Positions 48,039-60,169 of a stretch of DNA of 64,000 bases are shown piece after piece. Below the pieces are notes generated by a model. It was not told the DNA's origin. It did no database searches and saw only the letters and a program-made list of their open reading frames with translations. The DNA is from Candidatus Bathyarchaeota archaeon. GTDB taxonomy: Archaea > Thermoproteota > Bathyarchaeia > Bathyarchaeales > Bathyarchaeaceae. The DNA is taken from the NCBI GenBank assembly GCA_963697165.1, contig CAVOMX010000006.1, forward strand, positions 5,206-69,205, given 5' to 3'. The translations under genes and the position numbers were made by a program. Every line of letters begins with the position of its first letter. Within the stretch, counting starts at the first letter, position 1.

Positions 48039-49028
48039 TTACACTCGAAGGCGGTTTATATCTTCATCACTAGCGGCAGTAGATCTAATGATTGTTACAT
48101 TTCCAGCTAGTACCCGTTGTACATTCACTTCCTCACAATTTTCAACATCCGAATACCTTATTGTTATCTCAGCTGCTTTCTTTGTAACCTTACCAGAACA
48201 ATTTTCTTCCAGTAATGTAATTGGACCCATGTAATCAACAACTTCAAGGTGTGGTAGTTGTTTTCGATTGCTAATCATTAAAAGAGACTGGTTTTCTTTC
48301 TCATTTCTCCCTACAATAATTTTTTTTCCATCAAATCGAAAATGTCTCCCTATTTTCAAAAGATTAACATCATCTATTTTTAGGTCTTTTTTGTATTTTA
48401 ATAAATCCTTTAGTCTTTCAGCAAACTTAGGGTCGGTTAGTAAACATCCACCTGATGGACATGGGTAGTCTTTTACGCCCCATTTGTTAGCTAAATCCAT
48501 TTGTGGCAATCGTCTTCGCCCTTGAATTGAATGCAGCTTCTCCCTATTCACTTGCCCGCTTTTTTCTATCTCTGTTTCAGGTAGAAGTTTTGCAGATAAA
48601 GGTCTCAGAATCATTCCTTCCATTTCGGCCTTCCTTTCAATAAGATCCATTGCCCTTTTGGTTTGAGAGAATGGTCTTTGATCCAAAACCTCCCCGGTTA
48701 CAACGCATTTAGCTCCCAGTTTTTGGGCTAATTCTTTAGCTTTTCTCATCATCATAATTCTACAATCTATACACGGATTCATTTGACTGCCATATCCACG
48801 AGGAGGATTAGCAATTAAATCCAAATATTCTTGACCCAATATGACTGTATGCGCCTTAATTCCAAAAGTCTTGACTACCGATCCTGCAGAACATTTATCA
48901 CAAAGACAAAAAGGGGTAGTAAAAATTGCTGCTTCTACATCTAGGTCTTGATCAATCATTGCTTTAACGGCCAATGTACTGTCTAAACCTCCAGAAAGTA
49001 GAACTAACACTTTGGATTTTTCATTCAT
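48039..49028 (-). CDS. PP-loop tRNA thiolation enzyme (ThiI/MnmA-like, no THUMP domain)
   Basis: SGGLDS, NPCIDCR, TGEVLDQRP and GGCLLTD motifs. Confidence 0.8.
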   Translation of the reverse strand: MNEKSKVLVLLSGGLDSTLAVKAMIDQDLDVEAAIFTTPFCLCDKCSAGSVVKTFGIKAHTVILGQEYLDLIANPPRGYGSQMNPCIDCRIMMMRKAKELAQKLGAKCVVTGEVLDQRPFSQTKRAMDLIERKAEMEGMILRPLSAKLLPETEIEKSGQVNREKLHSIQGRRRLPQMDLANKWGVKDYPCPSGGCLLTDPKFAERLKDLLKYKKDLKIDDVNLLKIGRHFRFDGKKIIVGRNEKENQSLLMISNRKQLPHLEVVDYMGPITLLEENCSGKVTKKAAEITIRYSDVENCEEVNVQRVLAGNVTIIRSTAASDEDINRLRV

Positions 49029-49205
49029 TATATTATCACCAATTAAATATTAACTGATAATTTGGTCAGAATTTGTTCAGTAAAATCTTATTTATAGAAT
49101 TCATGAAGACACCAATTCAATATTCGTCAGTTATAACGAAACAGAATGATGATATAACACCGTTATATATTTTTTCTTTTAAAGGCATAGATGTTTCAAC
49201 AGAGA

Positions 49206-49245
49206 TGTTAAATTTTAGCCACCAAATTCAAATCCAAAACCAAAC
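49206..49245. repeat. Degenerate palindrome site with tail
   Basis: TGTTAAATTTTAGCCACCAAATTCAAATCCAAAACCAAAC. Confidence 0.55.
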
Positions 49246-49418
49246 ACACACTATAGACAGCTATTACAATTAGCCATTGCTAATTGTGGAAAAACAATAA
49301 TTTAAAATAATAATACTTCATTGCTAAAAACAGTCTTTTTTCCAGAAAAACAGCGAACCTTAAAGGTTAATAGAAAACTTGACCACCTAACTAGTATTCA
49401 CTTTGGGAGCGGACATTA

Positions 49419-50129
49419 ATGAAGACTCAGTCTGGCTGGAGAGCATCAATAGCGATCGTTTGTTATGTCTCTTTGATTGTTGGAATTTTTTTTGGAAGCA
49501 TAATAGTTGCACTAATAGTTTTTTGCTTGGGCATTGACTTTCAAGAATTATCTTTTCCAGCATCCCTAATATCCCTACCCATCACTGAAGGATTAATCTT
49601 AGGAATCACGTTTTTTTTTGCTAAACATAAAGGTGCAAATTTACAAAAATTGGGATTAAAAAAGCCCCGCCTTAAAACAATATTGATTGTTTCAGTTGTT
49701 GCTCTGCTTCTTATTCTGCTTGCTGGAACCATCTCTGTCTTTGAAGAGGTTGTTCTGGGTCCAGACCCTATGGCTGAAGACCTCTTGACTGTTCTGTTGC
49801 CTCGAGATTCATTTCAACTGGTTGCTCTGGTCGGAATTTCAATATTTCTGGTTGGTCCCGCTGAAGAGTTAGCATTTAGGGGCTTCATCCAGCGGGGGTT
49901 TGAGAACTCGTTTGGCAAGATGAGTGGTCTGCTGATTGCCTCCCTACTGTTTGGGCTCTTGCATGGTCTCAATTCTCTGCGTGCCATCATTCCCGTTACT
50001 GTGATCAGCCTGATTTTGGGTTATGTCTGGCAAAAAACTGATGGCAACACCACAGCTTGTGCTTGGATGCATGGACTATACGACGCAGTAACCATAACCT
50101 TGGCATATCTTGCTTCCGTTTACGTCTAA
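49419..50129 (+). CDS. CPBP/CAAX (Abi) family intramembrane metalloprotease
   Basis: EELAFRG, FGLLH and MHGLYD motifs. Confidence 0.9.
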   Translation: MKTQSGWRASIAIVCYVSLIVGIFFGSIIVALIVFCLGIDFQELSFPASLISLPITEGLILGITFFFAKHKGANLQKLGLKKPRLKTILIVSVVALLLILLAGTISVFEEVVLGPDPMAEDLLTVLLPRDSFQLVALVGISIFLVGPAEELAFRGFIQRGFENSFGKMSGLLIASLLFGLLHGLNSLRAIIPVTVISLILGYVWQKTDGNTTACAWMHGLYDAVTITLAYLASVYV

Positions 50130-50191
50130 ATCACGTGACATCTAGCCTTCTTCGATCAATATAATAACCCGTTATCAAGAATAATGAGGTT

Positions 50192-51242
50192 ATGCGAGGT
50201 TTCAGGGATCGCGATTTTATTCAAACCAGCGAAGGACTCTTTTTTTGTGTAGTTGGGCCACTACATCCGCCGAAGCGGGTCATCTCCTACATTAAGTACG
50301 TTCCATCAGAGTCCGGAGTTTGGGGAAGCGGAGAAAACAAATTCAGCAGAATATTACAGAAATACACGATTCCTAATCTGTTGGAAACATTCAATTTTCT
50401 TGAGCAAAACTATCCGTATTACCTGTTCCATTCTCCTGTATACAACATAACTATAACCGCTGTTCCTTACGAATGCATAAAGGAGACATTTCAAGCCAGA
50501 ACAAAAGTTGGCTCAACTGAGGCAGGCTCAGCAACTGGATTCGTTACAAGAGAAGCTGATCCGTTTCACAATGTTTTTAGAGGAAATAAGTGGTGTTCCC
50601 GCAGCGTCTTTTGGTGTGACAGGTTCTCTTCTTCTTGATATTCATCAACCAGTATTTTCGGACCTTGACATAACGGTGTATGGCGTAGATGACAGTTGGA
50701 CTCTGCATAAAGCATTGACTGAAAATCGAGGTTCTGACTTGCCCATGAAACGTCTCAAAGGAAAATCTCTGGAAGACTGGTGCCTCAAGAAGGCTGAGCA
50801 GTATCCGTTGTCTCCCGCGGAAGCATCAAAAATTTACCATCGGAAGTGGAACCTAGGAGTTTTTGAAGACCGCTGGGTTTCTATACATCCTGTTTATCTT
50901 GAAAGCAATGTTACAGAAGAATACGACCAAAATTCTTACATTCCGTGTGATCAAGTAACAATACAAGCTGTTATAGGCGACAATACAGGTTCCCTTTTTC
51001 TTCCCGCGACATATAAGATTGAAGACGTGAAGTTTCTGGTTGGTCAGCATTTAGATAATGTTACTGAGGTGGTTTCTTACGAGAGCCTCTATGATAGTCT
51101 AGCTGAAAACGGCGAAACCATCCAAGCTAAAGGCAAACTTGAGAACGTGTCATTGAAAAAGGAACCAAACTAGAGCATTACCGTGTTCTGATAGGTTCAG
51201 CCTGAAGGCAAAGGCAAGGAATACATAAAATTGGTGGATTAA
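50192..51242 (+). CDS. Predicted nucleotidyltransferase (COG1665-like; frameshifted)
   Basis: FRDRD N-terminus; GVTGS..SDLDITVYG; paralog of the 28752 and 29833 genes. Confidence 0.8.
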
Positions 51243-51256
51243 CCAAAAAAGGGTGG

Positions 51257-52156
51257 TTACTCCAGATTCAACACTTCTTTTAGATTTGCTTTAAACGGAC
51301 CAAGCTTGCCTCCGTAGTTACCAGCAGTAATCTTTATGACTCCAGGAACTTTGATTGCAGCCTGTATTCCTTCACCCATAGCAGCTTTCACAACTTTCTG
51401 GTTCAAACCATTTATTACAATCTCGTAGACGCTATTAACACCGTCTGGAACCATAGAGTCAGACACCAATTTCTTGATGGTTGGACAATATTGATGGCTT
51501 GTAGATGCAGGAAGCTTATAGTTAAGAGATCCAATTTTCGATCCTGCCCTGCATAGACCGCCGGGGAAGGGCATAATTACTCCCCGAACATTCTTACTGA
51601 TGGCTTCTTTAGCGTCTTCCGATGCCTTTAGAGCAACCTCCCAGTCTTTTGCTAATATAAGCATGTTTCCACTGGCAACTGCTTTCATGATTCCGAAGGT
51701 ATCTTCAACTATGAATTCGCCTTCCATAACTGGTATTCGCCAAACTTTCCTTCCAGCAACCTCGTCACTTTTCTGGAAGCCGTCTCCGAATAGGCGTAGG
51801 CTTCTGCCAATTTTGACTCTTCTTTTTGCTTTGGGTAACGCGTCGAAGGCTGCTGTTGTTGGGCAGGTCATGATGCATTGTCCGATTCTTAAACTCATTT
51901 GGTGCTTGAGATCGCCTCTTGAGCTGTGGTAGATTTGAATGATGGCTCCTGGACGTCCGTCTGGAGTTTCTTTTGGAGATACAAGTCCTTCTACTGATGC
52001 CTCTGCTGGTGACATGATGATGGATGAAGCGAAGCCTGATGCGGTTCTTGCTGCGATTAATGCCCATTTTTCATTGGCAGCAGTTATCAGTATTCGACCT
52101 GCCCACATTGGAAACATTTCGGCGAATGTATCCTCTATGGTGCAGAATGTTTCCAT
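51257..52156 (-). CDS. ftr: Formylmethanofuran-tetrahydromethanopterin formyltransferase (start uncertain; homology extends to 52208)
   Basis: IEDTFAE, TPDGRPG, RIGQCIMTCPT, PFPGG..GSK and ITAGNYGGKLG motifs. Confidence 0.93.
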   Translation of the reverse strand: METFCTIEDTFAEMFPMWAGRILITAANEKWALIAARTASGFASSIIMSPAEASVEGLVSPKETPDGRPGAIIQIYHSSRGDLKHQMSLRIGQCIMTCPTTAAFDALPKAKRRVKIGRSLRLFGDGFQKSDEVAGRKVWRIPVMEGEFIVEDTFGIMKAVASGNMLILAKDWEVALKASEDAKEAISKNVRGVIMPFPGGLCRAGSKIGSLNYKLPASTSHQYCPTIKKLVSDSMVPDGVNSVYEIVINGLNQKVVKAAMGEGIQAAIKVPGVIKITAGNYGGKLGPFKANLKEVLNLE

Positions 52157-52209
52157 TCTCGGTTTTAACTATGAAGTCTCCGTTATCTTCTCTTTTGATA
52201 ACTTCGAGT

Positions 52210-53373
52210 TTACTTTCTTTTTCTGAAGATTTTGATTCCGTCTCTTTCTGTGACATACTCGAAACCTGCCATTAACAACTCTTCGTCTTGTTTTAAACTT
52301 TTAGATGTTGCGGTGTGATACTCGTCACTCTCAAAGTTCACAAAATGGGTGTAAATAAGTGTAGATGTTATGTTCCTGTGTCCAAGTCTCTCTTTAACAT
52401 GAAGAATGTTTTTTGTTTTGAAGTATTCCAATGAACCATAGAGATGTCGAAGAGTGTGAAAGGTGATTTTGTCTATTCGGGGATTCTGTAGTTTATTGGC
52501 TACATGTTTTCGTTGTTGCCTGAAGTTTTTTCTGAAATGTTTTAGTTGAGTATTTCCGAATATTTTCTCTCCTGTTTTCGGTAGCATATTAAGCATTGAA
52601 ATTAGTTTGCCTGATATCTTGAATTGACGTGGTAAACCATTTTTTTCAGGTTTGTTGATTGTTAGGATTCCTTTCTCCTGGTCAAAATCTATCCATGTTA
52701 ATTGCCATGCTTCTCCATACCTGCAACCTGTCTCGTTCAATAATTGAATGAATGTCGCAACTTTCCGACTACAACCGCCAATTAATGCCTCGATTTCTTT
52801 TGTTTGTGGTAGCCACGGTAATTTTTCTTGTTTTTTCCCCATGTTTCAAAGTTGATTTGTTCAGAAATCTGTATGTTACATATTTGGCAAAATGATTTGT
52901 AAGCAATTGCAGAGTTTTTTTTAGCTCCATCAGTCCAGTTCTTTTCTGTTACTGTTCTGGTTTTATGGCTGAATTTTTTGGCCTTGTTAATAATGTGAAA
53001 GACACTTTCAGGGTTTGTTAAGGTTGCTCCACGTTTTTGCAGTAACTTCAACACGTTTACTCGGTTTATGATTGTTTTAGGTTTCAGTCCTTTAAGAATC
53101 AGTTTTGCTTCATAGTTTACTAAATGTCCTTTTGTGGTCGATTCTCCCGCAGTCTGTTTTTCGTTTTGTTTTGACTGCGTCCAAGTTTTTCACTCTCTCT
53201 GTTTCGAGAGCGCATATTTGGCGACCACGTGTTATCTGGTAGTCTTTATAATATTTTTCATTGAAACGATAACCACAGCTTCGACAAAGATATCTTTGAA
53301 ACACCTTGCCCTGAACGTAACGTAGACCATCTTTCCAAATCATAGAGTTGGTACATTCAGGACAAACCAGCAT
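52210..53373 (-). CDS. Tyrosine recombinase/integrase with N-terminal Zn ribbon (two frameshifts)
   Basis: CPEC..CRSC; catalytic GCR, FHTLRH, LGH, TLIY; three ORF pieces join. Confidence 0.88.
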
Positions 53374-53855
53374 TATTGCTGGGTCTCCTTGCCTTTTTTT
53401 CGTTCAGATTTATATTTCTCTACGCATGGTTGGCACGCTAGCTTGCCATCTATTATTGAAAGATTCTTCAATAAAATTGGTTTATTACAGATAAAACAAA
53501 CTTGGATATGCCCTGTTTCGTTTCCCGTTTGTTCAGGGAGAAGTTTATTTGGCTTATTTTTCGATTCTGATGACGTTTCTTTGCTCTGTTTGAGGATTCT
53601 CACGTTCTCATAAGGGTATAGAAATGCTTTCTTTTTTACAACTACTCTCGGTTTTCCTTCATGGATAATAATGTCAATTTCGTTACCGGTAATTGGGTCA
53701 ATAAAAGAGCCCTCTATAGGGTAGCGAGAAAGTGAGAAGTTAGTAATAACGCCTAATACTTGCTCTATTTGCTTTTCCGCATCTTCTACATTTCCCCCTT
53801 CAGAAACAAGAAGTGTTTTAGGCGTATTTTCCGTTGTATAAAAAACATAAGACAA
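53373..53855 (-). CDS. Hypothetical element protein with C-terminal CxxC..CxxC
   Basis: CFICNK..CQPC; stop codon overlaps the integrase start. Confidence 0.6.
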   Translation of the reverse strand: MSYVFYTTENTPKTLLVSEGGNVEDAEKQIEQVLGVITNFSLSRYPIEGSFIDPITGNEIDIIIHEGKPRVVVKKKAFLYPYENVRILKQSKETSSESKNKPNKLLPEQTGNETGHIQVCFICNKPILLKNLSIIDGKLACQPCVEKYKSERKKGKETQQ

Positions 53856-54276
53856 AAATTAACAATAATGTTTTCGATTTAATTGAGAACAAGGATGTTG
53901 TGTTACACCATCGGGGAAAAGATTTGAACAAAGCAAAACGAAGTATGACTTCTTATTCTTAGAAGCTACACAACTATATTCTGTCTTTTTTCTGAATTCG
54001 GGTATTGTATTCTTTATGTTTTCTGTCATTGTCTCGTTTTTGTATTTGTGTATTCTTCTGTTTTCTAACTGCCTGTATACAAGAATTACCTAGGTAAAAC
54101 TCTCTGTCTTTTGTATGTGTTCTGTTATGTCAAATTGTCTTGTCTGTTTTCGTGAGTGTCTACTTTTTGTCTGTTTCTATTCTGTAGGTTTGTCCATTTT
54201 CTTGTTTTTCTAAAATAAATGTAATATAGTGTCGGATGTGTTAGATAAATAGCCTCAGGATCGGAGACCATGTAAC

Positions 54277-55272
54277 TTGAGTAATCTTAGATGTTTTATT
54301 AGTTATTCTTGGGATCACCAAAAACACAAAGATTGGGTTAGATTATTAGCAGAAGAATTAAGAAAAAACGGCGTAGATGCAAAATTAGATCAATGGGATT
54401 GCCAGCTCGGAATGGATTTGGCAAATTACATGGAAACTGGCATACGGGAATCCGATTTTGTTCTTTTGATATGTATCCCCATTTTTTGTGAGAAAGCTAA
54501 TTCTGGAACGGGTGGGGTTGGATATGAGAAATGTATTGTTACAGGTGAAATATTTCAGGGAACTGACCCTAGGAAGTTTATCCCAATTCTCCGTGAAGGT
54601 ACTCCAAAAGAATCCATGCCATCATACCTTAAATCAAAAGTTTACATAGATTTTCGAAACGATGGAGAATTTGATTCAAATTTGGAAGATTTATTGAGAC
54701 CGATTTATAAAAGTCCCAAATATGTTAGACCTCCACTTGGATTTAAACCACCTTTTAGTAATGATTCCCAACAATCTGGAATCAGTGGGAAAAAAGTTAA
54801 GATTTGGGATTTTAGAACATACCGACTAGTTTATGATTATGCTATTAGTTATTTTGGAATGAAGTTACTTCCAGAACAAGCAAGAGAGTTTGCCGACGAA
54901 TGGATGTTCAAACACTCGGATAGAAATTTTGAGGACTACAAACAGGTCTACGAGTATGCTGTCAGTTTTATTGGAATGAAATTACTTCCTTCAGCTGCGA
55001 GATTGTTTGCTGATAAATGGATGACTGAATACGCGGATAGAAATTTTGATGGCTACAAACAGGTCTACGAGTATGCTGTTGGCTATTTTGGAATGAAGTT
55101 ACTTCCAGAACAAGCAAGAGAGTTTGCTGACGAATGGATGTTCAAATATTCCAAGACAGATTTTGGTAATTTAAAACAGATCTACGAGTATGCTGTCAGT
55201 TCTATTGGAATGAAATTACTACCTTCAGATGCAAAAGAATTTGCTTTGGAAAAAATTAAAGAACAGATTTAA
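54277..55272 (+). CDS. TIR/SEFIR-domain protein with C-terminal ~39-aa repeats
   Basis: FISYSWD, LDQWD, GGVGYE; four YEYAV..GMKLLP repeats. Confidence 0.88.
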   Translation: MSNLRCFISYSWDHQKHKDWVRLLAEELRKNGVDAKLDQWDCQLGMDLANYMETGIRESDFVLLICIPIFCEKANSGTGGVGYEKCIVTGEIFQGTDPRKFIPILREGTPKESMPSYLKSKVYIDFRNDGEFDSNLEDLLRPIYKSPKYVRPPLGFKPPFSNDSQQSGISGKKVKIWDFRTYRLVYDYAISYFGMKLLPEQAREFADEWMFKHSDRNFEDYKQVYEYAVSFIGMKLLPSAARLFADKWMTEYADRNFDGYKQVYEYAVGYFGMKLLPEQAREFADEWMFKYSKTDFGNLKQIYEYAVSSIGMKLLPSDAKEFALEKIKEQI

Positions 55273-55392
55273 GCAGTCCAAGATACTTTTTTTCTTCCTC
55301 ATTTTGTTCCACCCAAAATTACCTAGGTAAAAAGCTAGTCAACAACAAAATTACCTATGTAAAGTTCCAAACGATTAGGGAATACTATAAAA

Positions 55393-55408
55393 AGTTAAAA
55401 TTTAACCC
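55393..55408. repeat. Palindrome site
   Basis: AGTTAAAATTTAACCC. Confidence 0.7.
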
Positions 55409-55557
55409 GTAATTAAAAAAATTAAATGGTTTAGTTATTAAATTACGATTAATTGTATATCCGTACATTCATTCTTGATTAGAGAAATGAAAAAAACTGT
55501 ATACAGGGACTATACTATGTAAAGAAACTTGAAAGGCTAACATGGAGGTTTAAAGAA

Positions 55558-55770
55558 TTGGGTTTATGGCAAAAAATAATTCAACGAATTAGACGTAGAT
55601 TATTGCTCCCAGGAGAAAATTGGGGAAATAAAAAACATGGAGAATGCTTCAACTTTGATAATGGAACATGTCTAATCATACCAAGGGCATTTAAAAGAAG
55701 AAATTTGGACCCAAAATGGCCAGCATGCCCCCATTTCAAAGCAAAAAATAATCAAAGGAACAATATCTGA
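55558..55770 (+). CDS. Small Cys-containing hypothetical protein
   Basis: 70-aa ORF preceded by GGAGG; lies between two palindrome sites. Confidence 0.5.
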   Translation: MGLWQKIIQRIRRRLLLPGENWGNKKHGECFNFDNGTCLIIPRAFKRRNLDPKWPACPHFKAKNNQRNNI

Positions 55771-55806
55771 AATGTTGTAGAATAAAATTTCAACTTAGGA
55801 CTTATC

Positions 55807-55870
55807 GGTTTGGGTTAAAATTTTAACCTTTAGAAAAAAAGTGGACTTGTGGGAGATATCACCACTGGGG
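55807..55870 (-). repeat. Composite repeat (GGTGATATCTCC + C/T tract + palindrome)
   Basis: Reverse strand reads CCCCAGTGGTGATATCTCCCACAAGTCCACTTTTTTTCTAAAGGTTAAAATTTTAACCCAAACC. Confidence 0.7.
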
Positions 55871-56167
55871 TGAGAATCCATGCTAGACCATGACCCAATA
55901 TGTTCTGTCTTTCTTATTTGAATAGCTTTCAAAATTTAAAAAAAGGAGGAGTTGCGGGATTTAGTGGCGATGTCTCCAACCATTAAGGGAATGGCTGTTA
56001 CCTAAACGGTGGACACATGACCACTTGGTTTTTTGCAAAACCCCCCCTTTTTTTGGAATAGGCAATTTACTAACATAAGAATGCTAAATGTATATTTAAC
56101 TAACTAAACTGACTGACAACCAGCTTAGTCAAAGTAGATAAATATTCTTTTTATTACATGTTTATAG

Positions 56168-56431
56168 TTGAAAGGTGGGGAAGAAAGAATGACGTTTCTT
56201 ATTTGGTTTTTTAACAAAAATCATAAACATCATCATTCTGCAATGATCATCTATTGTTTTTTGTTTGGATTAAGTATGATATTTATTGGTATTGTTGGAA
56301 TTAGTATTTCTGAAATTCTTGCACTTACTTGTTTTATTCTAAGCGGTGTGTCTTTTGTTTCTGGATTTTATTATATCATAGATAAGAAAAGGAAAAAAAC
56401 AGTTAAGAAAATGTCCAGTAATAGCTCATAA
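56168..56431 (+). CDS. Small 2-TM membrane protein
   Basis: Two hydrophobic helices and a basic tail; flanked by 31-bp direct repeats. Confidence 0.55.
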   Translation: MKGGEERMTFLIWFFNKNHKHHHSAMIIYCFLFGLSMIFIGIVGISISEILALTCFILSGVSFVSGFYYIIDKKRKKTVKKMSSNSS

Positions 56432-56593
56432 GAATGGTAAATGTATATTTAACTAACCAGTCTCTTCATGGAATGGCTGTTCTCTTAAGGAGGGTGATAT
56501 CACCCCGTCCATTTCGCAAAACTCCCCTTTTTTCAAGGGTTAATATTTATCTTTCTAGATATACATTCCATAATTGCCAAGGATTGAAGATCT

Positions 56594-57079
56594 ATGTTTA
56601 ATAAGATACTTGTTCCTTTAGATTGTTCCAAATATGCAGAAACTTCTTTGAAAGTAGCGATTGAGATAGCTAAGAAATTTAAGAAAGTAGCGATTGAGAT
56701 AGCTAAGAAATTTAATAGTAGTCTTTCTTTAGTGCATGTTGTTTCATCTCGTAAAGAGTATTGTAGATCTGGGATTACTGGAAAACTTAGAGTCAAATGT
56801 AACTTAGACGAAGTTACTGACAAAGACATCCCAAAGATTTGTAATGCACTTTTAGATACAAGTAAAAATACAGTTATTGCTGAAGGAGTTTCAGTAAATA
56901 CAATACTGAAAGAAGGTAAAGTTGTAGAAGAGATACTGAATACGATTAAGGAAGGAAAATTCGATTTAGTTGTAATGGGTTCTAGAGGTCAGGGTTTGAT
57001 AAAAAAAATATTCTTAGGGAGTGTTAGTGAAGGAGTTAGTAAAGAAGCTATATGTCCGGTTTTATTGACAAGAAATTAA
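56594..57079 (+). CDS. Universal stress protein with an 11-aa tandem duplication
   Basis: MFNKILVPLD, DLVVMGSRG, LGSVS and CPVL motifs. Confidence 0.92.
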   Translation: MFNKILVPLDCSKYAETSLKVAIEIAKKFKKVAIEIAKKFNSSLSLVHVVSSRKEYCRSGITGKLRVKCNLDEVTDKDIPKICNALLDTSKNTVIAEGVSVNTILKEGKVVEEILNTIKEGKFDLVVMGSRGQGLIKKIFLGSVSEGVSKEAICPVLLTRN

Positions 57080-57205
57080 GGTTTACAAGAATATTCACAG
57101 CAAAGATTGTGACGTCGCCCCGGGCTTTCCTGCAAAACTTCTTTTTTCAAAGATTAAAATGTAATCCCAAAAATATTTAAGAATTTAAAATTAAAGATAG
57201 CAAAT

Positions 57206-57430
57206 ATGAAAACAGTATATTTGAAGGTCTTAGGTTATGTTGGCGAAATTCTGGGTAATTTTATAATAATAGCAGGATTTTTTCTAATGTTCAATGATCC
57301 AAGCCAAGAATATAGATCGCTTGAAATTGTTTTGTTTTCGGTTGGTGCAATTCTATTGGGAATAGGACTAATTAGTTATATATTATTCCGCAACAAAACT
57401 ACGGGAATTATGTTCCAGAAGGCATGTTGA
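57206..57430 (+). CDS. Small 2-TM membrane protein
   Basis: 74-aa hydrophobic ORF. Confidence 0.5.
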   Translation: MKTVYLKVLGYVGEILGNFIIIAGFFLMFNDPSQEYRSLEIVLFSVGAILLGIGLISYILFRNKTTGIMFQKAC

Positions 57431-57581
57431 AACCTACATATTTTATGCTAGTATGCCCTACCTAAACCGATTAAAATTCAAATACGAAAATTAGGTGAAA
57501 AGCAAGACTTCTCTTTTTTAAACCATTTGCCTAAAATTATCTCATTTCAAGCAAGGAAAAATTATTGCTGGATTTGAAGGA

Positions 57582-57788
57582 ATGTTTGGCGGAGAAGTTA
57601 CTGCCTATAGTTCTGAGGTAGAAAAAGCTAGAAACGAGTCAATGGAAAGATTGATCGAGAACGCCAAAAGTGTAGGTGCAAATGCAGTTGTTCGCACAGA
57701 TTTTGAAACAAGCGATATACTAAACGGAACAGTCACAATATTTTCTGCCTACGGGACAGCGGTGATTATTAATCCTCTTAAAAAGTAG
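57582..57788 (+). pseudogene. 5'-truncated YbjQ/UPF0145 family gene
   Basis: GGEVTAY..AR..A...GANAVV..AYGTAV matches the C-terminal part of YbjQ; N-terminus not found. Confidence 0.65.
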
Positions 57789-57854
57789 GCTTAATCAGAG
57801 ATAATAAAATTCAGCAAATTAAAAAAAGGGAATTTTTGCGGGAGATGTCTCCAC

Positions 57855-57965
57855 TATGGGGAACATTTCAGCGAATGTATCCTCTATTCTTACTGGGTCT
57901 TGTTTTCCGGGTACTTTTACAATGAAATCGTTATCTTCTTTTTTAATAACTTCAAGAGATGCCAT
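57855..57965 (-). pseudogene. ftr: Displaced 5' fragment of ftr
   Basis: Translates MASLEVIKKEDNDFIVKVPGKQDPVRIEDTFAEMFP; upstream GGAG and TATAAATA box. Confidence 0.8.
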
Positions 57966-58088
57966 TATCTTTTACTCCATTAACTCTATCTTCTTCCACT
58001 CTGGGAATTATCTGAGCGTGATTTGAGAAGTTCTCATCTTTATTTATACTTTTAGTTGTTGCGGTGTTGGTTTAATTGTACTGTTATG

Positions 58089-59153
58089 TTAACTAATCTG
58101 TAATGTGTCAATAGGTGTTTTGAGGCGCTTTGGTTTGTCGGAGATTTTATTGATAAAACGTGTTTCAAAGAGGTATATGATAGATAGGTAGGCAAACATC
58201 CAGGCAATGAAAAAGAATTCTCCATAAAACTCGTGAAACAATTTAGCTGGTGAGTCTCCACCATGAATTCCTAATACATAAATCGTTACTATTCTGAGGA
58301 TGTTGACGAAAAATGTTCCAGCTGCTCCTACGATAACGTAAATTATTTTTCTGATACGGGATATGCTGGTACCCCTGAGGAACAACATAATCATAAACGA
58401 ATACAGGAAGAGGCTGTGGCTTCCAGCACAAGACCATGCCACATAAGCTGAATAGCTATTGATTCCGTTAGATGCATAGAGACCCAGAGTGTTGTCGATT
58501 CCCGAGAATGTACGAGTCGCGTAGCCCAACAGATTCAGGATAAACTCTGCTCCTGATGCTGTAATGGGAACAAGGGACTGCAAAACAGTGAATGTGCCAT
58601 TGGGATAGAATGTGTCAATCATGTAAAAGATTCCTACGCCTCCTATAAAAAAGGAGGAGACAGAGAATATCTTCAGTCCCTGACCTCCATACAGAAGCCA
58701 AATTGATGCCACAAAAAATACTGCAAAGAGAATATACTCAAGGGAGAAAGGCCAAGAATGAGTCAAATACCATGTATCTCCATCTATAATGGGTACACCA
58801 ACGGCTCTTCCCAGTTCAATTATTCCCGACTGTAAACCAAAGTTAAGTCCAACCGCGTATATTGTAGGCAGAAGCAAAGTTACTGCTGCTAACACTGTTT
58901 TTTTGGTCCAGACCTTTGGGTGTTCTGTTTTGAGTTTTTTCCATCCGAGGGCTACCTCTAAGGAGAATAGCCAGAGAAAGAGAAGGTACGGCGCTCTGCC
59001 CTTCCACAGGTAATTGAAGGAGTCAGCGTCTATGATATAAATGGTTAGCAGTGGAACAATGAAAGCTGCAAGAACGAGGGCAGTCTGTAGAAGAAACGGG
59101 CGATCTATTCTGGAAATGAGTAATTTTAGTTGTTCTTTTGAGGAGGTTATCAT
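58089..59153 (-). CDS. Archaeosortase/exosortase family protein
   Basis: Multi-TM; VAWSCAG catalytic Cys, NILRI Arg, FHE His; PEF-CTERM proteins in the same window. Confidence 0.85.
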   Translation of the reverse strand: MITSSKEQLKLLISRIDRPFLLQTALVLAAFIVPLLTIYIIDADSFNYLWKGRAPYLLFLWLFSLEVALGWKKLKTEHPKVWTKKTVLAAVTLLLPTIYAVGLNFGLQSGIIELGRAVGVPIIDGDTWYLTHSWPFSLEYILFAVFFVASIWLLYGGQGLKIFSVSSFFIGGVGIFYMIDTFYPNGTFTVLQSLVPITASGAEFILNLLGYATRTFSGIDNTLGLYASNGINSYSAYVAWSCAGSHSLFLYSFMIMLFLRGTSISRIRKIIYVIVGAAGTFFVNILRIVTIYVLGIHGGDSPAKLFHEFYGEFFFIAWMFAYLSIIYLFETRFINKISDKPKRLKTPIDTLQIS

Positions 59154-59252
59154 AGTGGTTAAGTCCTACCGAACATGAGGTAACGTCCTACAGAGAATAC
59201 CCTTATTTCCATTAGCAATAAAATAACAATTTTGTTCTATAGATGCTGAAAA

Positions 59253-59655
59253 TCATTCTTTCTGTTCCTTAAAATTTAGGGATATCGAGTTGATACAGAA
59301 ACGTTGACCAGTAGGCGTTGGGCTGTCGTCGAAGATGTGTCCAAGGTGTCCGCCACATTTTTTGCAGGTCACCTCGATTCTATGCATTCCAAAACGGTTA
59401 TCTCTTTTTTCTTCGATATTGTCCTTCGATACTGTACCCCAAAAACTGGGCCAGCCTGTTCCCGAATCAAATTTTGTGTCTGAACTAAAAAGTTCGTTTC
59501 CGCAGCCACCGCATACATAAATGCCTTTTTTCTTGTTCTTTAGATACTTTCCGGTGAAGGCAGGTTCGGTTCCTTTTTCTCTAAGCACATGATATTCTTC
59601 TGGAGAAAGAAGTTCCTTCCATTCATCTTCTGTTTTTGTTTTGATGGCTTTTCAC
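59253..59655 (-). CDS. msrB: Peptide methionine (R)-sulfoxide reductase (5' end has a probable frameshift)
   Basis: GTEPAFTG, KFDSGTGWPSF, HLGHIF, RFCINS; frame extends upstream as KTEDEWKELLSPEEY. Confidence 0.93.
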
Positions 59656-59746
59656 TTCCCTGACGTTTCATGATTTTCAAAACTTAATCGTTACCATGGC
59701 GGGTTTGTTACAAATCTTATATTTATTGTTGCTTTAAAAGTTATAC

Positions 59747-60169
59747 TTGAACAAAGAAAGTGGTGAATTGAGCGAATTCAAATATCCTGCCTCCTTCAAG
59801 GGAAAATATCTAGGTGTTCTTGTTTTGGTTATTGTACAGTTTTTAGGGGGGATTGTTCACGCTATTATCGGTTTTTTTCTCATATACGCAGTTTCTGGAG
59901 TACTTGTCTATAACATTTACACGTTTCTCTATGGCATTTTTAGCATGATTTTCGTGTATGGTCTTTGGACCGGCAAAAAATCAGGCTGGTTAGGCACCAT
60001 AATTTTGTCCCTTTTCGTTATTGTAGTAGATGTTTCTACCGTTTTGAATTTGCAACTGATAGCTGGGGTTCCGAAGAGTGCCGCGTTCGGCGAAATTTTC
60101 GTCAGCATTATATTTATTGCATATCTGCTTCAACACAAAGTTGTTCGCGTGTTCAAGGAAACCAACTAG
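59747..60169 (+). CDS. Hypothetical 4-TM membrane protein
   Basis: Four hydrophobic segments. Confidence 0.65.
   Translation: MNKESGELSEFKYPASFKGKYLGVLVLVIVQFLGGIVHAIIGFFLIYAVSGVLVYNIYTFLYGIFSMIFVYGLWTGKKSGWLGTIILSLFVIVVDVSTVLNLQLIAGVPKSAAFGEIFVSIIFIAYLLQHKVVRVFKETN

Follow-up and report, generated by a model that had tools for sequence, protein, structure and literature searches.

Two diverged direct repeats in the 5' end of ftr enclose an element of about 5.75 kb in a 64,000-nucleotide stretch, hereafter the window, of the genome of a Candidatus Bathyarchaeota archaeon. Ftr carries out a step of the tetrahydromethanopterin (H4MPT) branch of the Wood-Ljungdahl pathway, the basis of current views on carbon metabolism in Bathyarchaeia. 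The element spans window positions 52107-57887, from the attL core to the attR core, and holds a tyrosine integrase gene, a bSEFIR gene, a universal stress protein (Usp) gene and small open reading frames (ORFs). We consider it highly probable that this is a site-specific element inserted in the start of ftr, for which it supplies a replacement 5' end, and since the element's version stands in front of the ftr body, ftr should be expressible without excision. In the mechanism that we propose, the element would have recombined with a core of ~30 nt in the first conserved ftr codons (IEDTFAEMFP), by means of an integrase from a zinc-ribbon tyrosine integrase family abundant in Bathyarchaeum genomes. 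Its attachment arm would lie directly behind the integrase stop, partly within the last 35 integrase codons, and would be a diverged copy of the ftr 5' region, with a block resembling a B recognition element (BRE) and TATA box, an ATG within the integrase codons E-Y-V, and an extension of ~35 residues. Integration would thus displace the original promoter, together with 36 codons, by 5.75 kb, and set the element's version before the intact ftr body.

The ftr body (51257..52156, minus strand), read from ATG 52156, gives a 299-residue Ftr of canonical length with the Pfam domains FTR and FTR_C. Its identity is secure, with full-length matches above the equivalog cut-off to TIGR03119 (396.7 bits, cut-off 292.6) and NF002554 (405.5 bits, cut-off 297) in NCBIfam, matches to the solved Ftr structures 1ftr, 1m5s and 1m5h at E 1e-95 to 3e-91, and 92% identity to the orthologue in G003, a genome of the same genus. 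A second ftr paralogue, 40% identical, lies on another contig of the same genome (G000), which is a metagenome bin of 25 contigs and 81% completeness. ATG 52156 is a chance product of an AAT-GGA codon pair; upstream of it on the minus strand come 19 codons, LEVIKREDNGDFIVKTENG, in another frame, then one spare nucleotide and the integrase stop (TAA 52212-52210). Read the other way, 1 nt beyond this stop the minus strand encodes LEVIKREDNGDFIVKTENG and, after a 1-nt shift, TFCTIEDTFAEMFPMWAGR, followed by Ftr.

The displaced original 5' end of ftr lies at 57856..57965 on the minus strand, where 36 native codons are followed by read-through into the element, up to a stop at 57819. The resulting ORF (57965-57819) encodes 48 residues, namely MASLEVIKKEDNDFIVKVPGKQDPVRIEDTFAEMFP and 12 unrelated ones, and is preceded by GGAG and by the native ftr promoter block (58023..58067, minus strand), which contains TATAAAT at 58048-58042 and resembles a decayed integrase 3' end. 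Promoter and 36 codons together span 57856-58067. The displaced N-terminus is 71% identical to that of G003 over 56 residues, and the genes beyond it, encoding an exosortase and then MsrB, are also the neighbours in G003.

Three pairs of direct repeats, with a start-to-start spacing of 5748-5751 nt, tie the two ends together: 52107-52138 with 57856-57887 (32 nt, 3 mismatches), 52181-52208 with 57929-57956 (28 nt, 89% identical), and 52272-52316 with 58023-58067 (45 nt, 78%), the last of which an earlier reading of the sequence (see below) had not listed. The 32-mer core and a 25-mer of the third block each found a second match in none of 100 shuffles, so these repeats exceed what chance would produce. 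The three core mismatches, GCC/GCT, TTT/TTC and CCA/CCC, all fall at third codon positions and are synonymous. The core adjoining the ftr body (attL, 52107..52138) has the element-type GCC at the Ala codon, as in G019, G021 and G011, and the core at the displaced native 5' end (attR, 57856..57887) has the native-type GCT found in G003. A direct repeat stands at each end, and a relative has an empty site equal to one repeat; the locus thus has the make-up of a site-specific integrative element. Neither Rfam (E up to 0.1; 49000-60000) nor ARAGORN (whole window) returned a match, and hence no tRNA or known RNA at the ftr site. An earlier reading of the window from sequence alone (the sequence-only reading) had described the ORF at 57965 behind a TATA box and GGAG, the ftr-like N-terminus that begins 1 nt past the integrase stop and shifts by 1 nt into the ftr body, and the synonymous core mismatches, all of which hold here. 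Its own caveat, that the fragment at 57.9 kb might belong to another ftr paralogue, is ruled out by the same native 5' end being intact in G003.

The empty site itself was found in G003, in which a native-type N-terminus is fused to the ftr body and the flanks match the window, with genes for Rce1-like and nucleotidyltransferase-like proteins at one flank and those for exosortase and MsrB at the opposite one. We also aligned to the window, at 90% likeness or above, contigs from four runs, X1, X2 and X3 among them, which are metagenomes other than the source sample (the largest share of sampled words in any run was 0.23). In one X3 contig 52112 is joined to 57862, as at an empty site, the short side being 70 letters long; in contigs of X1 (depth 162.6) and X2 (depth 48.3), 57856 is followed after two letters by 52113, an attP-like junction. 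The contigs of X1, X2 and X3 show empty-site and attP-like or tandem forms in related populations, not excision in the window genome. When the copies were aligned with ftr orthologues, the distal copy tracked G003 as far as ...GAAATGTTCCCCAT and then diverged, and the proximal copy tracked the element type of G019, G021 and G011, including the GCC Ala codon, before entering the ftr body. From this switch point we infer that exchange probably took place within the last ~14 nt of the core, on the ftr-body side, at the GAAATGTT..AT end. Of the checks proposed in the sequence-only reading, that for attB has a counterpart in the empty site of G003 and the X3 contig, and the alignment of N-termini gives the probable crossover; for a circular attP, X1 and X2 have the expected junction, which a tandem array would also give.

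We next consider the replacement 5' end, which runs over 52139..52256 (minus strand) from ATG 52256, set in the E-Y-V codons of the integrase, and encodes MSQKETESKSSEKESKLEVIKREDNGDFIVKTENG, with the frame broken by an extra C at 52145. Upstream of it, also within the last integrase codons, lies the BRE/TATA-like block (52291..52316, minus strand; TTTAAAA at 52297-52291), a putative ftr promoter that differs from the native block (58043-58067) at 2 of 25 positions and is kept in all six aligned sequences. The frame from the ATG into ftr is open in G019, G021, L086, L111, L112, L145, L146 and L150, and in G011 (L082) with a GTG start; the six L-numbered loci belong to named metagenome genomes of Bathyarchaeia/Thermoproteota, whose Ftr is 64-76% identical to that of the window. 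In an alignment of nine element-type sequences the ATG lay at the homologous position in eight, the ninth being G011. The 333-residue Ftr of G019 and G021 starts MSPKET[VE]SKSSEKES.LEVI.KDDNGDFIVKHLESGNICT[VI]ED..., its ATG again overlapping the E-Y-V codons. An in-frame, element-supplied replacement of the first codons of the target, as in dusA-type elements, is therefore present in nine relative loci, and the window copy is broken by 1 nt.

The integrases beside these starts are not all intact. In G021 the N-terminal parts are missing and there is an internal stop, and in G011 only ~20 tail codons are left, before a Usp gene and an exosortase gene; the element start is kept in both, which suggests that the element decays while its ftr start stays in use. 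In the G021 protein, alignment with the structures 1ftr, 1m5s and 1m5h begins only at residue 39, and the extension is thus additional to the canonical fold. An AlphaFold2 model of G021 Ftr, built with 65 aligned sequences, had a mean predicted local distance difference test (pLDDT) score of 86.1. In this model residues 17-41 are predicted to form three strands, with block pLDDT values of 94-96 over residues 21-40, and residues 1-12, encoded in the overlap with the integrase gene, score below 50.

The integrase gene (52210..53373, minus strand) is read in three pieces (frames -3, -1 and -3), which are separated by frame breaks near 53165 and 52840; its product has a zinc ribbon at the N-terminus, followed by middle and catalytic domains. 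The catalytic domain (52842-52210) scored 56.8 bits against PF00589 (cut-off 27.1), which assigns it to that family, and the best match among PHROG integrase families had an E of 9.2e-29. Its translation carries the motifs ...GCRYGEA..., HTLRH, LGHRN and LIYTH, which we take, by their order, to be the catalytic Arg, His-x-x-Arg, His/Trp and Tyr. From the same genus, eight homologues of full length (364-493 residues), all with zinc ribbon, middle and catalytic domains and a conserved tail ending ...GFEY[VI]...FRKRK, matched 53373-52210 by tblastn in frames -3, -1 and -3. A whole integrase is therefore there, split by two frame breaks, and the window has no single uninterrupted frame for it. Assignment to XerA was rejected, because the cut-off of NCBIfam NF040815, at 220 bits, is reached neither by the window piece (65.7 bits) nor by a full-length homologue (93.9 bits). 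An SSV-type arrangement, with attP inside the integrase ORF, was likewise rejected, as the stop is at 52210-52212, the core at 52107-52138, and the three parts of the integrase are all to the same side of it.

Compared with five element-type relatives, which read ..T-TGCACCAT.., the window has one extra C at 52145, and contigs of all four aligned runs have one base fewer at 52142/52143; related contigs are likewise one base shorter both at the first integrase break (53168/53169) and at a break in the neighbouring nucleotidyltransferase-like gene (50486). Against G003, 4 of ~19 shared chromosomal genes are frame-broken in the window (~12051, ~14416, ~29480 and ~50500), and G003 has 4 breaks against the window; both assemblies look indel-prone, which lowers the trust to be placed in any single-base frameshift of the window. 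The 1-nt shift of the sequence-only reading is thus present in the sequence and doubtful as a real feature: together with the two integrase breaks it may be an assembly error, given the many other frame breaks of the window and the related contigs that lack the extra base. More broadly, the three breaks appear to be assembly errors or recent decay, not design. Programmed frameshifting at 52145 was considered and set aside: the site offers nothing in its favour, and in relatives the frame continues without a break. Whether the breaks are errors or decay, ATG 52156 gives an Ftr of canonical length.

The alternative that survives best, although we hold it to be rather unlikely, is that the element integrated as proposed and is now a dead, immobile remnant with real frameshifts, ftr being either read from ATG 52156 without the extension or a pseudogene. 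Three frame breaks fall within 1.2 kb, elements at the ftr site do decay in relatives, and not all of the breaks lie in homopolymers, that at 52145 being outside one. These observations have to be set against the even exchange of broken genes with G003, which points to indel-prone assemblies, and against the contigs of other runs, which lack exactly one base at each of the positions 52142/52143, 53168/53169 and 50486.

Much less probable is a regulatory switch, in which ftr would be off or crippled while the element is integrated and the full-length gene would return only upon excision, as for the phage-interrupted comK and sigK genes of bacteria. The sequence-only reading had offered this as one of two possibilities, the other being the replacement 5' end with an ATG at 52256 that overlaps the integrase. 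A switch would account for the interruption of the element-type frame after 61 codons in the window, for the nearly intact native 5' end 5.75 kb away and for the empty-site and attP-like forms of related populations, and the 40% identical paralogue could cover the function meanwhile. However, the element-type start remains in frame in eight or more relatives, and in G021 and G011 this is so with a dead or deleted integrase, so that excision cannot restore ftr there. The Ftr from ATG 52156 is moreover of canonical length and aligns with the solved structures from their residue 6, and the 1-nt shift may be an assembly error. A switch could hold for the window only with a real shift and an ATG 52156 that goes unused. 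Of the two possibilities, restoration only on excision is therefore disfavoured by relatives in which the start is in frame even beside a truncated (G021) or deleted (G011) integrase, and the replacement 5' end is supported by the homologous frame being open in nine relative loci.

A chimera of two strains, with native-type and element-type ftr starts joined through the shared core, would suit a bin of such fragmentation and a two-ended configuration seen in this assembly alone, but is extremely improbable, because the attL side (integrase, element N-terminus and ftr) recurs in G019, G021 and L111, the 20-mer at the attR-side terminus also abuts the ftr core in independent metagenome contigs (L158 and L167), and synteny with G003 is kept on both flanks.

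Several observations nonetheless weigh against an integrated element that supplies a working 5' end. Both att copies occur within 8 kb in none of 80 other named ftr loci, which likewise hold no second ftr N-terminal fragment within that distance; an additional regular-expression match for the fragment, in L141, falls in unrelated sequence and on the other strand. The attP-like joint was read from other metagenomes, in contigs at 90% likeness or above, and a tandem array would give the same joint. A clean TATA box in the integrase tail is present only in the Bathyarchaeum sequences (window, L076 and L082) and is not found in L086, L111 or L112. The replacement frame of the window is broken by one extra base and its integrase by two, and this copy may be non-functional. 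Finally, not all ftr-adjacent integrases belong together. In the integrase tree, which includes G021 twice as the identical rows L037 and L076, those of the window, G021 and L111 form a clade (support 99/97), and that of L095 (1044-1679), from another family of the order, lies outside it and groups with integrases that are not beside ftr (support 97/93). This placement suggests a second, independent acquisition of the ftr target, or a long-branch effect.

The wider integrase family sheds light on how an element might come to use ftr. Of 25 genomes of the genus, 24 have members, more than 100 matches in all, among them 8 in the window's own genome (full-length and fragments), which indicates that the family is very active or long-lived in Bathyarchaeum. 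At 5 of 12 homologue loci the integrase stop is followed, 12-45 nt on, by a tRNA gene; an attachment site right behind the stop is on these grounds a habit of the family, and the remark of the sequence-only reading that archaeal integrases usually target tRNA genes fits it. On this comparison of loci, the ftr element belongs to a family with tRNA genes as its main targets and an att site just behind the integrase, and has itself switched target. Archaeal elements that integrate in tRNA genes and leave their integrase whole, which we presume to be those called 'pNOB8-type', share with the ftr element the whole integrase, the att site just behind it and the restoration of the displaced part of the target. 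The ftr element differs from them in what it supplies: as the target is the 5' end of a protein gene, it must bring a promoter, a start codon and coding sequence instead of a tRNA end. A locus search with the window integrase returned no relative in genome_contigs or viral_contigs.

To examine how far use of this site extends back, we took 69 named loci and searched the 450 nt upstream of ftr for similarity to the final 60 residues of nine integrases. By tblastn, 16 of the 69 showed such similarity (E<0.01). A hidden Markov model (HMM) of the tail detected 11 at E<0.01, and 13 when E<0.05 was allowed. All matches are on the ftr strand, and there were none in control stretches of equal size, whether 1150-1600 nt upstream (0 of 64) or ~100 nt downstream of the gene (0 of 65). 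Larger integrase pieces stand beside ftr in L076, L095 and L111. In the native Bathyarchaeum arrangement, ...HTATSKSINKDENFS is found upstream of ftr (G003) where the integrase has HTATSKSLKQDEELL, the native promoter and the integrase tail agree at 23 of 25 nt around the TATA box, and the same tail occurs in family integrases located at tRNA genes. Owing to these likenesses, we incline, with somewhat better than even confidence, towards reading the native ftr promoter region as the decayed integrase end of an earlier integration. Protein-level signals in native-type loci are weak (L077 and L081, E 0.006 by tblastn; L081, 0.013 by HMM). The converse, that the element captured host upstream DNA, was judged less likely, as family integrases sited at tRNA genes have the same tail. 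In G003 (L035, 2776-3948), the exosortase ORF runs through the integrase-tail fossil and overlaps the ftr ORF read from its first upstream ATG.

Among 70 loci with readable Ftr N-termini, 8 have a short canonical form (...LNGVEIEDT...) and 62 carry one of several types of extension. These types include a large group with ..GYDEKDKFGPCFIVKS..GHTVKV.D and a short group with ..F.YKAENGN.CEI.D. We propose that each integration by this family would overwrite the start of ftr, and that after decay the last integrase codons would survive, carrying the promoter and start codon of ftr. By extension, exapted mobile-element DNA may make up the promoter and 5' untranslated region of ftr, and perhaps also the entire structured extension at the N-terminus of its product, across a large part of Bathyarchaeia, with the expression signals of a core Wood-Ljungdahl gene repeatedly rewritten by, and inherited from, integrases, a proposal to which we give an even chance on the present comparisons.

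The remainder of the element carries cargo of several kinds. Upstream of the integrase is an ORF of 160 residues (53373..53855, minus strand) with a Cys-rich motif at its C-terminus and a weak match to DUF4428 below cut-off; it had no family above cut-off in Pfam and none in PADLOC, PHROGs or NCBIfam, and no homologue beside the other fetched integrases (flanks of 1.5 kb). A bSEFIR/TIR-domain protein (54277..55272, plus strand), a predicted defence protein, matched PADLOC bSEFIR over residues 1-236 of 331 (E 5.7e-71) as well as Pfam TIR_2 and SEFIR, and its gene contains four 117-nt repeats in the part encoding the C-terminal half. The palindrome TTACCTAGGTAA flanks it at 54081-54098, 55314-55331 and 55346-55363. 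Contigs of X1 and X2 jump from 54099 to about 55290-55376, skipping the gene, so this putative defence gene is a variably present cassette. The ~125 nt that follow it (55280-55410) are present four times in the genome (85-100% identity) and have a very high summed depth in X1 and X2. The Usp gene (56594..57079, plus strand; Pfam Usp, E 7.8e-26) contains a perfect 33-nt tandem duplication (56650-56715) that adds 11 residues and is single-copy in related contigs from three runs. Small membrane ORFs complete the cargo.

At the right end, the element holds the captured C-terminal half of a ybjQ-like gene (57555..57788, plus strand), 85.7% identical to residues 75-151 of the G003 protein. A full copy is present in its own genome (G000:C16:55547-56100; L178), and the similarity extends past the stop into a partial element terminus downstream of that chromosomal gene. 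The pattern is as if the element had once resided at the C16 site and left by an imprecise excision that carried off half the gene.

The conserved terminus itself, or P' arm (57819..57857, minus strand), consists of a 20-mer (57838-57857) followed by CCC and a run of T (57821-57827). The 20-mer occurs once in its own genome and, exactly, in 12 metagenome contigs with unrelated left flanks, two of which (L158 and L167) have the ftr core beside it. With at most one mismatch it was found at 10 sites in 9 of 251 genomes of the order, with 0 control matches, and the exact 20-mer had 0 matches in viral_contigs. CCC and the T run follow it throughout, and several of the left flanks resemble tRNA 3' ends or tRNA 5' halves; by this distribution the terminus looks like a shared arm or binding site of the whole element family. 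In L167 two such termini lie 260 nt apart. The inverted repeat in the terminus, with 5-nt arms and a 2-nt centre, was judged too short for a good RNA hairpin of an intrinsic terminator.

The closest known analogue is found among the dusA-associated integrase (DAI) islands and prophages of Proteobacteria, for which the passages on island structure describe island sequence that takes the place of the dusA 5' end, promoters predicted before and after insertion, new N-terminal residues judged a structural substitute, and a remnant of the original 5' end at the far end of the island (PMC4482086, Farrugia et al. 2015). Both kinds of element, as far as those passages describe the DAI islands, replace the 5' end of their target, and we claim functional likeness, not membership of a clade. 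The DAI hosts there are bacteria, whereas the host of the ftr element is an archaeon and its target an enzyme of one-carbon (C1) metabolism. Its integrase, moreover, belongs to a zinc-ribbon family that is unrelated to DAI by name and mostly found beside tRNA genes. In contrast to the islands as so described, the ftr element has its start codon and putative promoter inside the last integrase codons and has left tail remnants in many lineages.

Archaeal comparisons are less close. Integrated elements of Thaumarchaeota likewise use tyrosine recombinases and may target protein genes, in 14 of 68 cases, all of them 3'-distal, with the element end replacing the last codons (PMC6563490, Krupovic et al. 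2019). Neither a 5' target nor the replacement of a promoter is described in the parts of that paper concerned with integration targets (PMC6563490). The 'suicidal' SSV-type integrases are also archaeal tyrosine integrases whose att region overlaps the integrase gene, which is split on integration according to the relevant passages (PMC8371274); in the ftr element the core lies ~70-100 nt behind the stop and the gene is unsplit. A full-text literature search found no paper combining integrase, formylmethanofuran and attachment site, and the passages on integrases and proviruses of a paper on Bathyarchaeia viruses do not mention ftr as an integration site. What distinguishes the ftr element is the start codon, and probably the promoter, embedded in the integrase 3' end, along with a fossil record of repeated use of the site.

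Annotation pipelines are liable at such loci to call wrong ftr starts and fused neighbouring ORFs, and the exosortase of G003 would be called C-terminally extended. If our interpretation is correct, a defined attB/attP pair and its integrase family could serve as a genetic tool in a lineage now without one. The locus would also be a clear archaeal case of an integrase 3' end kept by selection as a host promoter after the death of the element. For the organisms themselves, expression of a core C1 gene would be set by element-derived sequence, and could differ between close strains.

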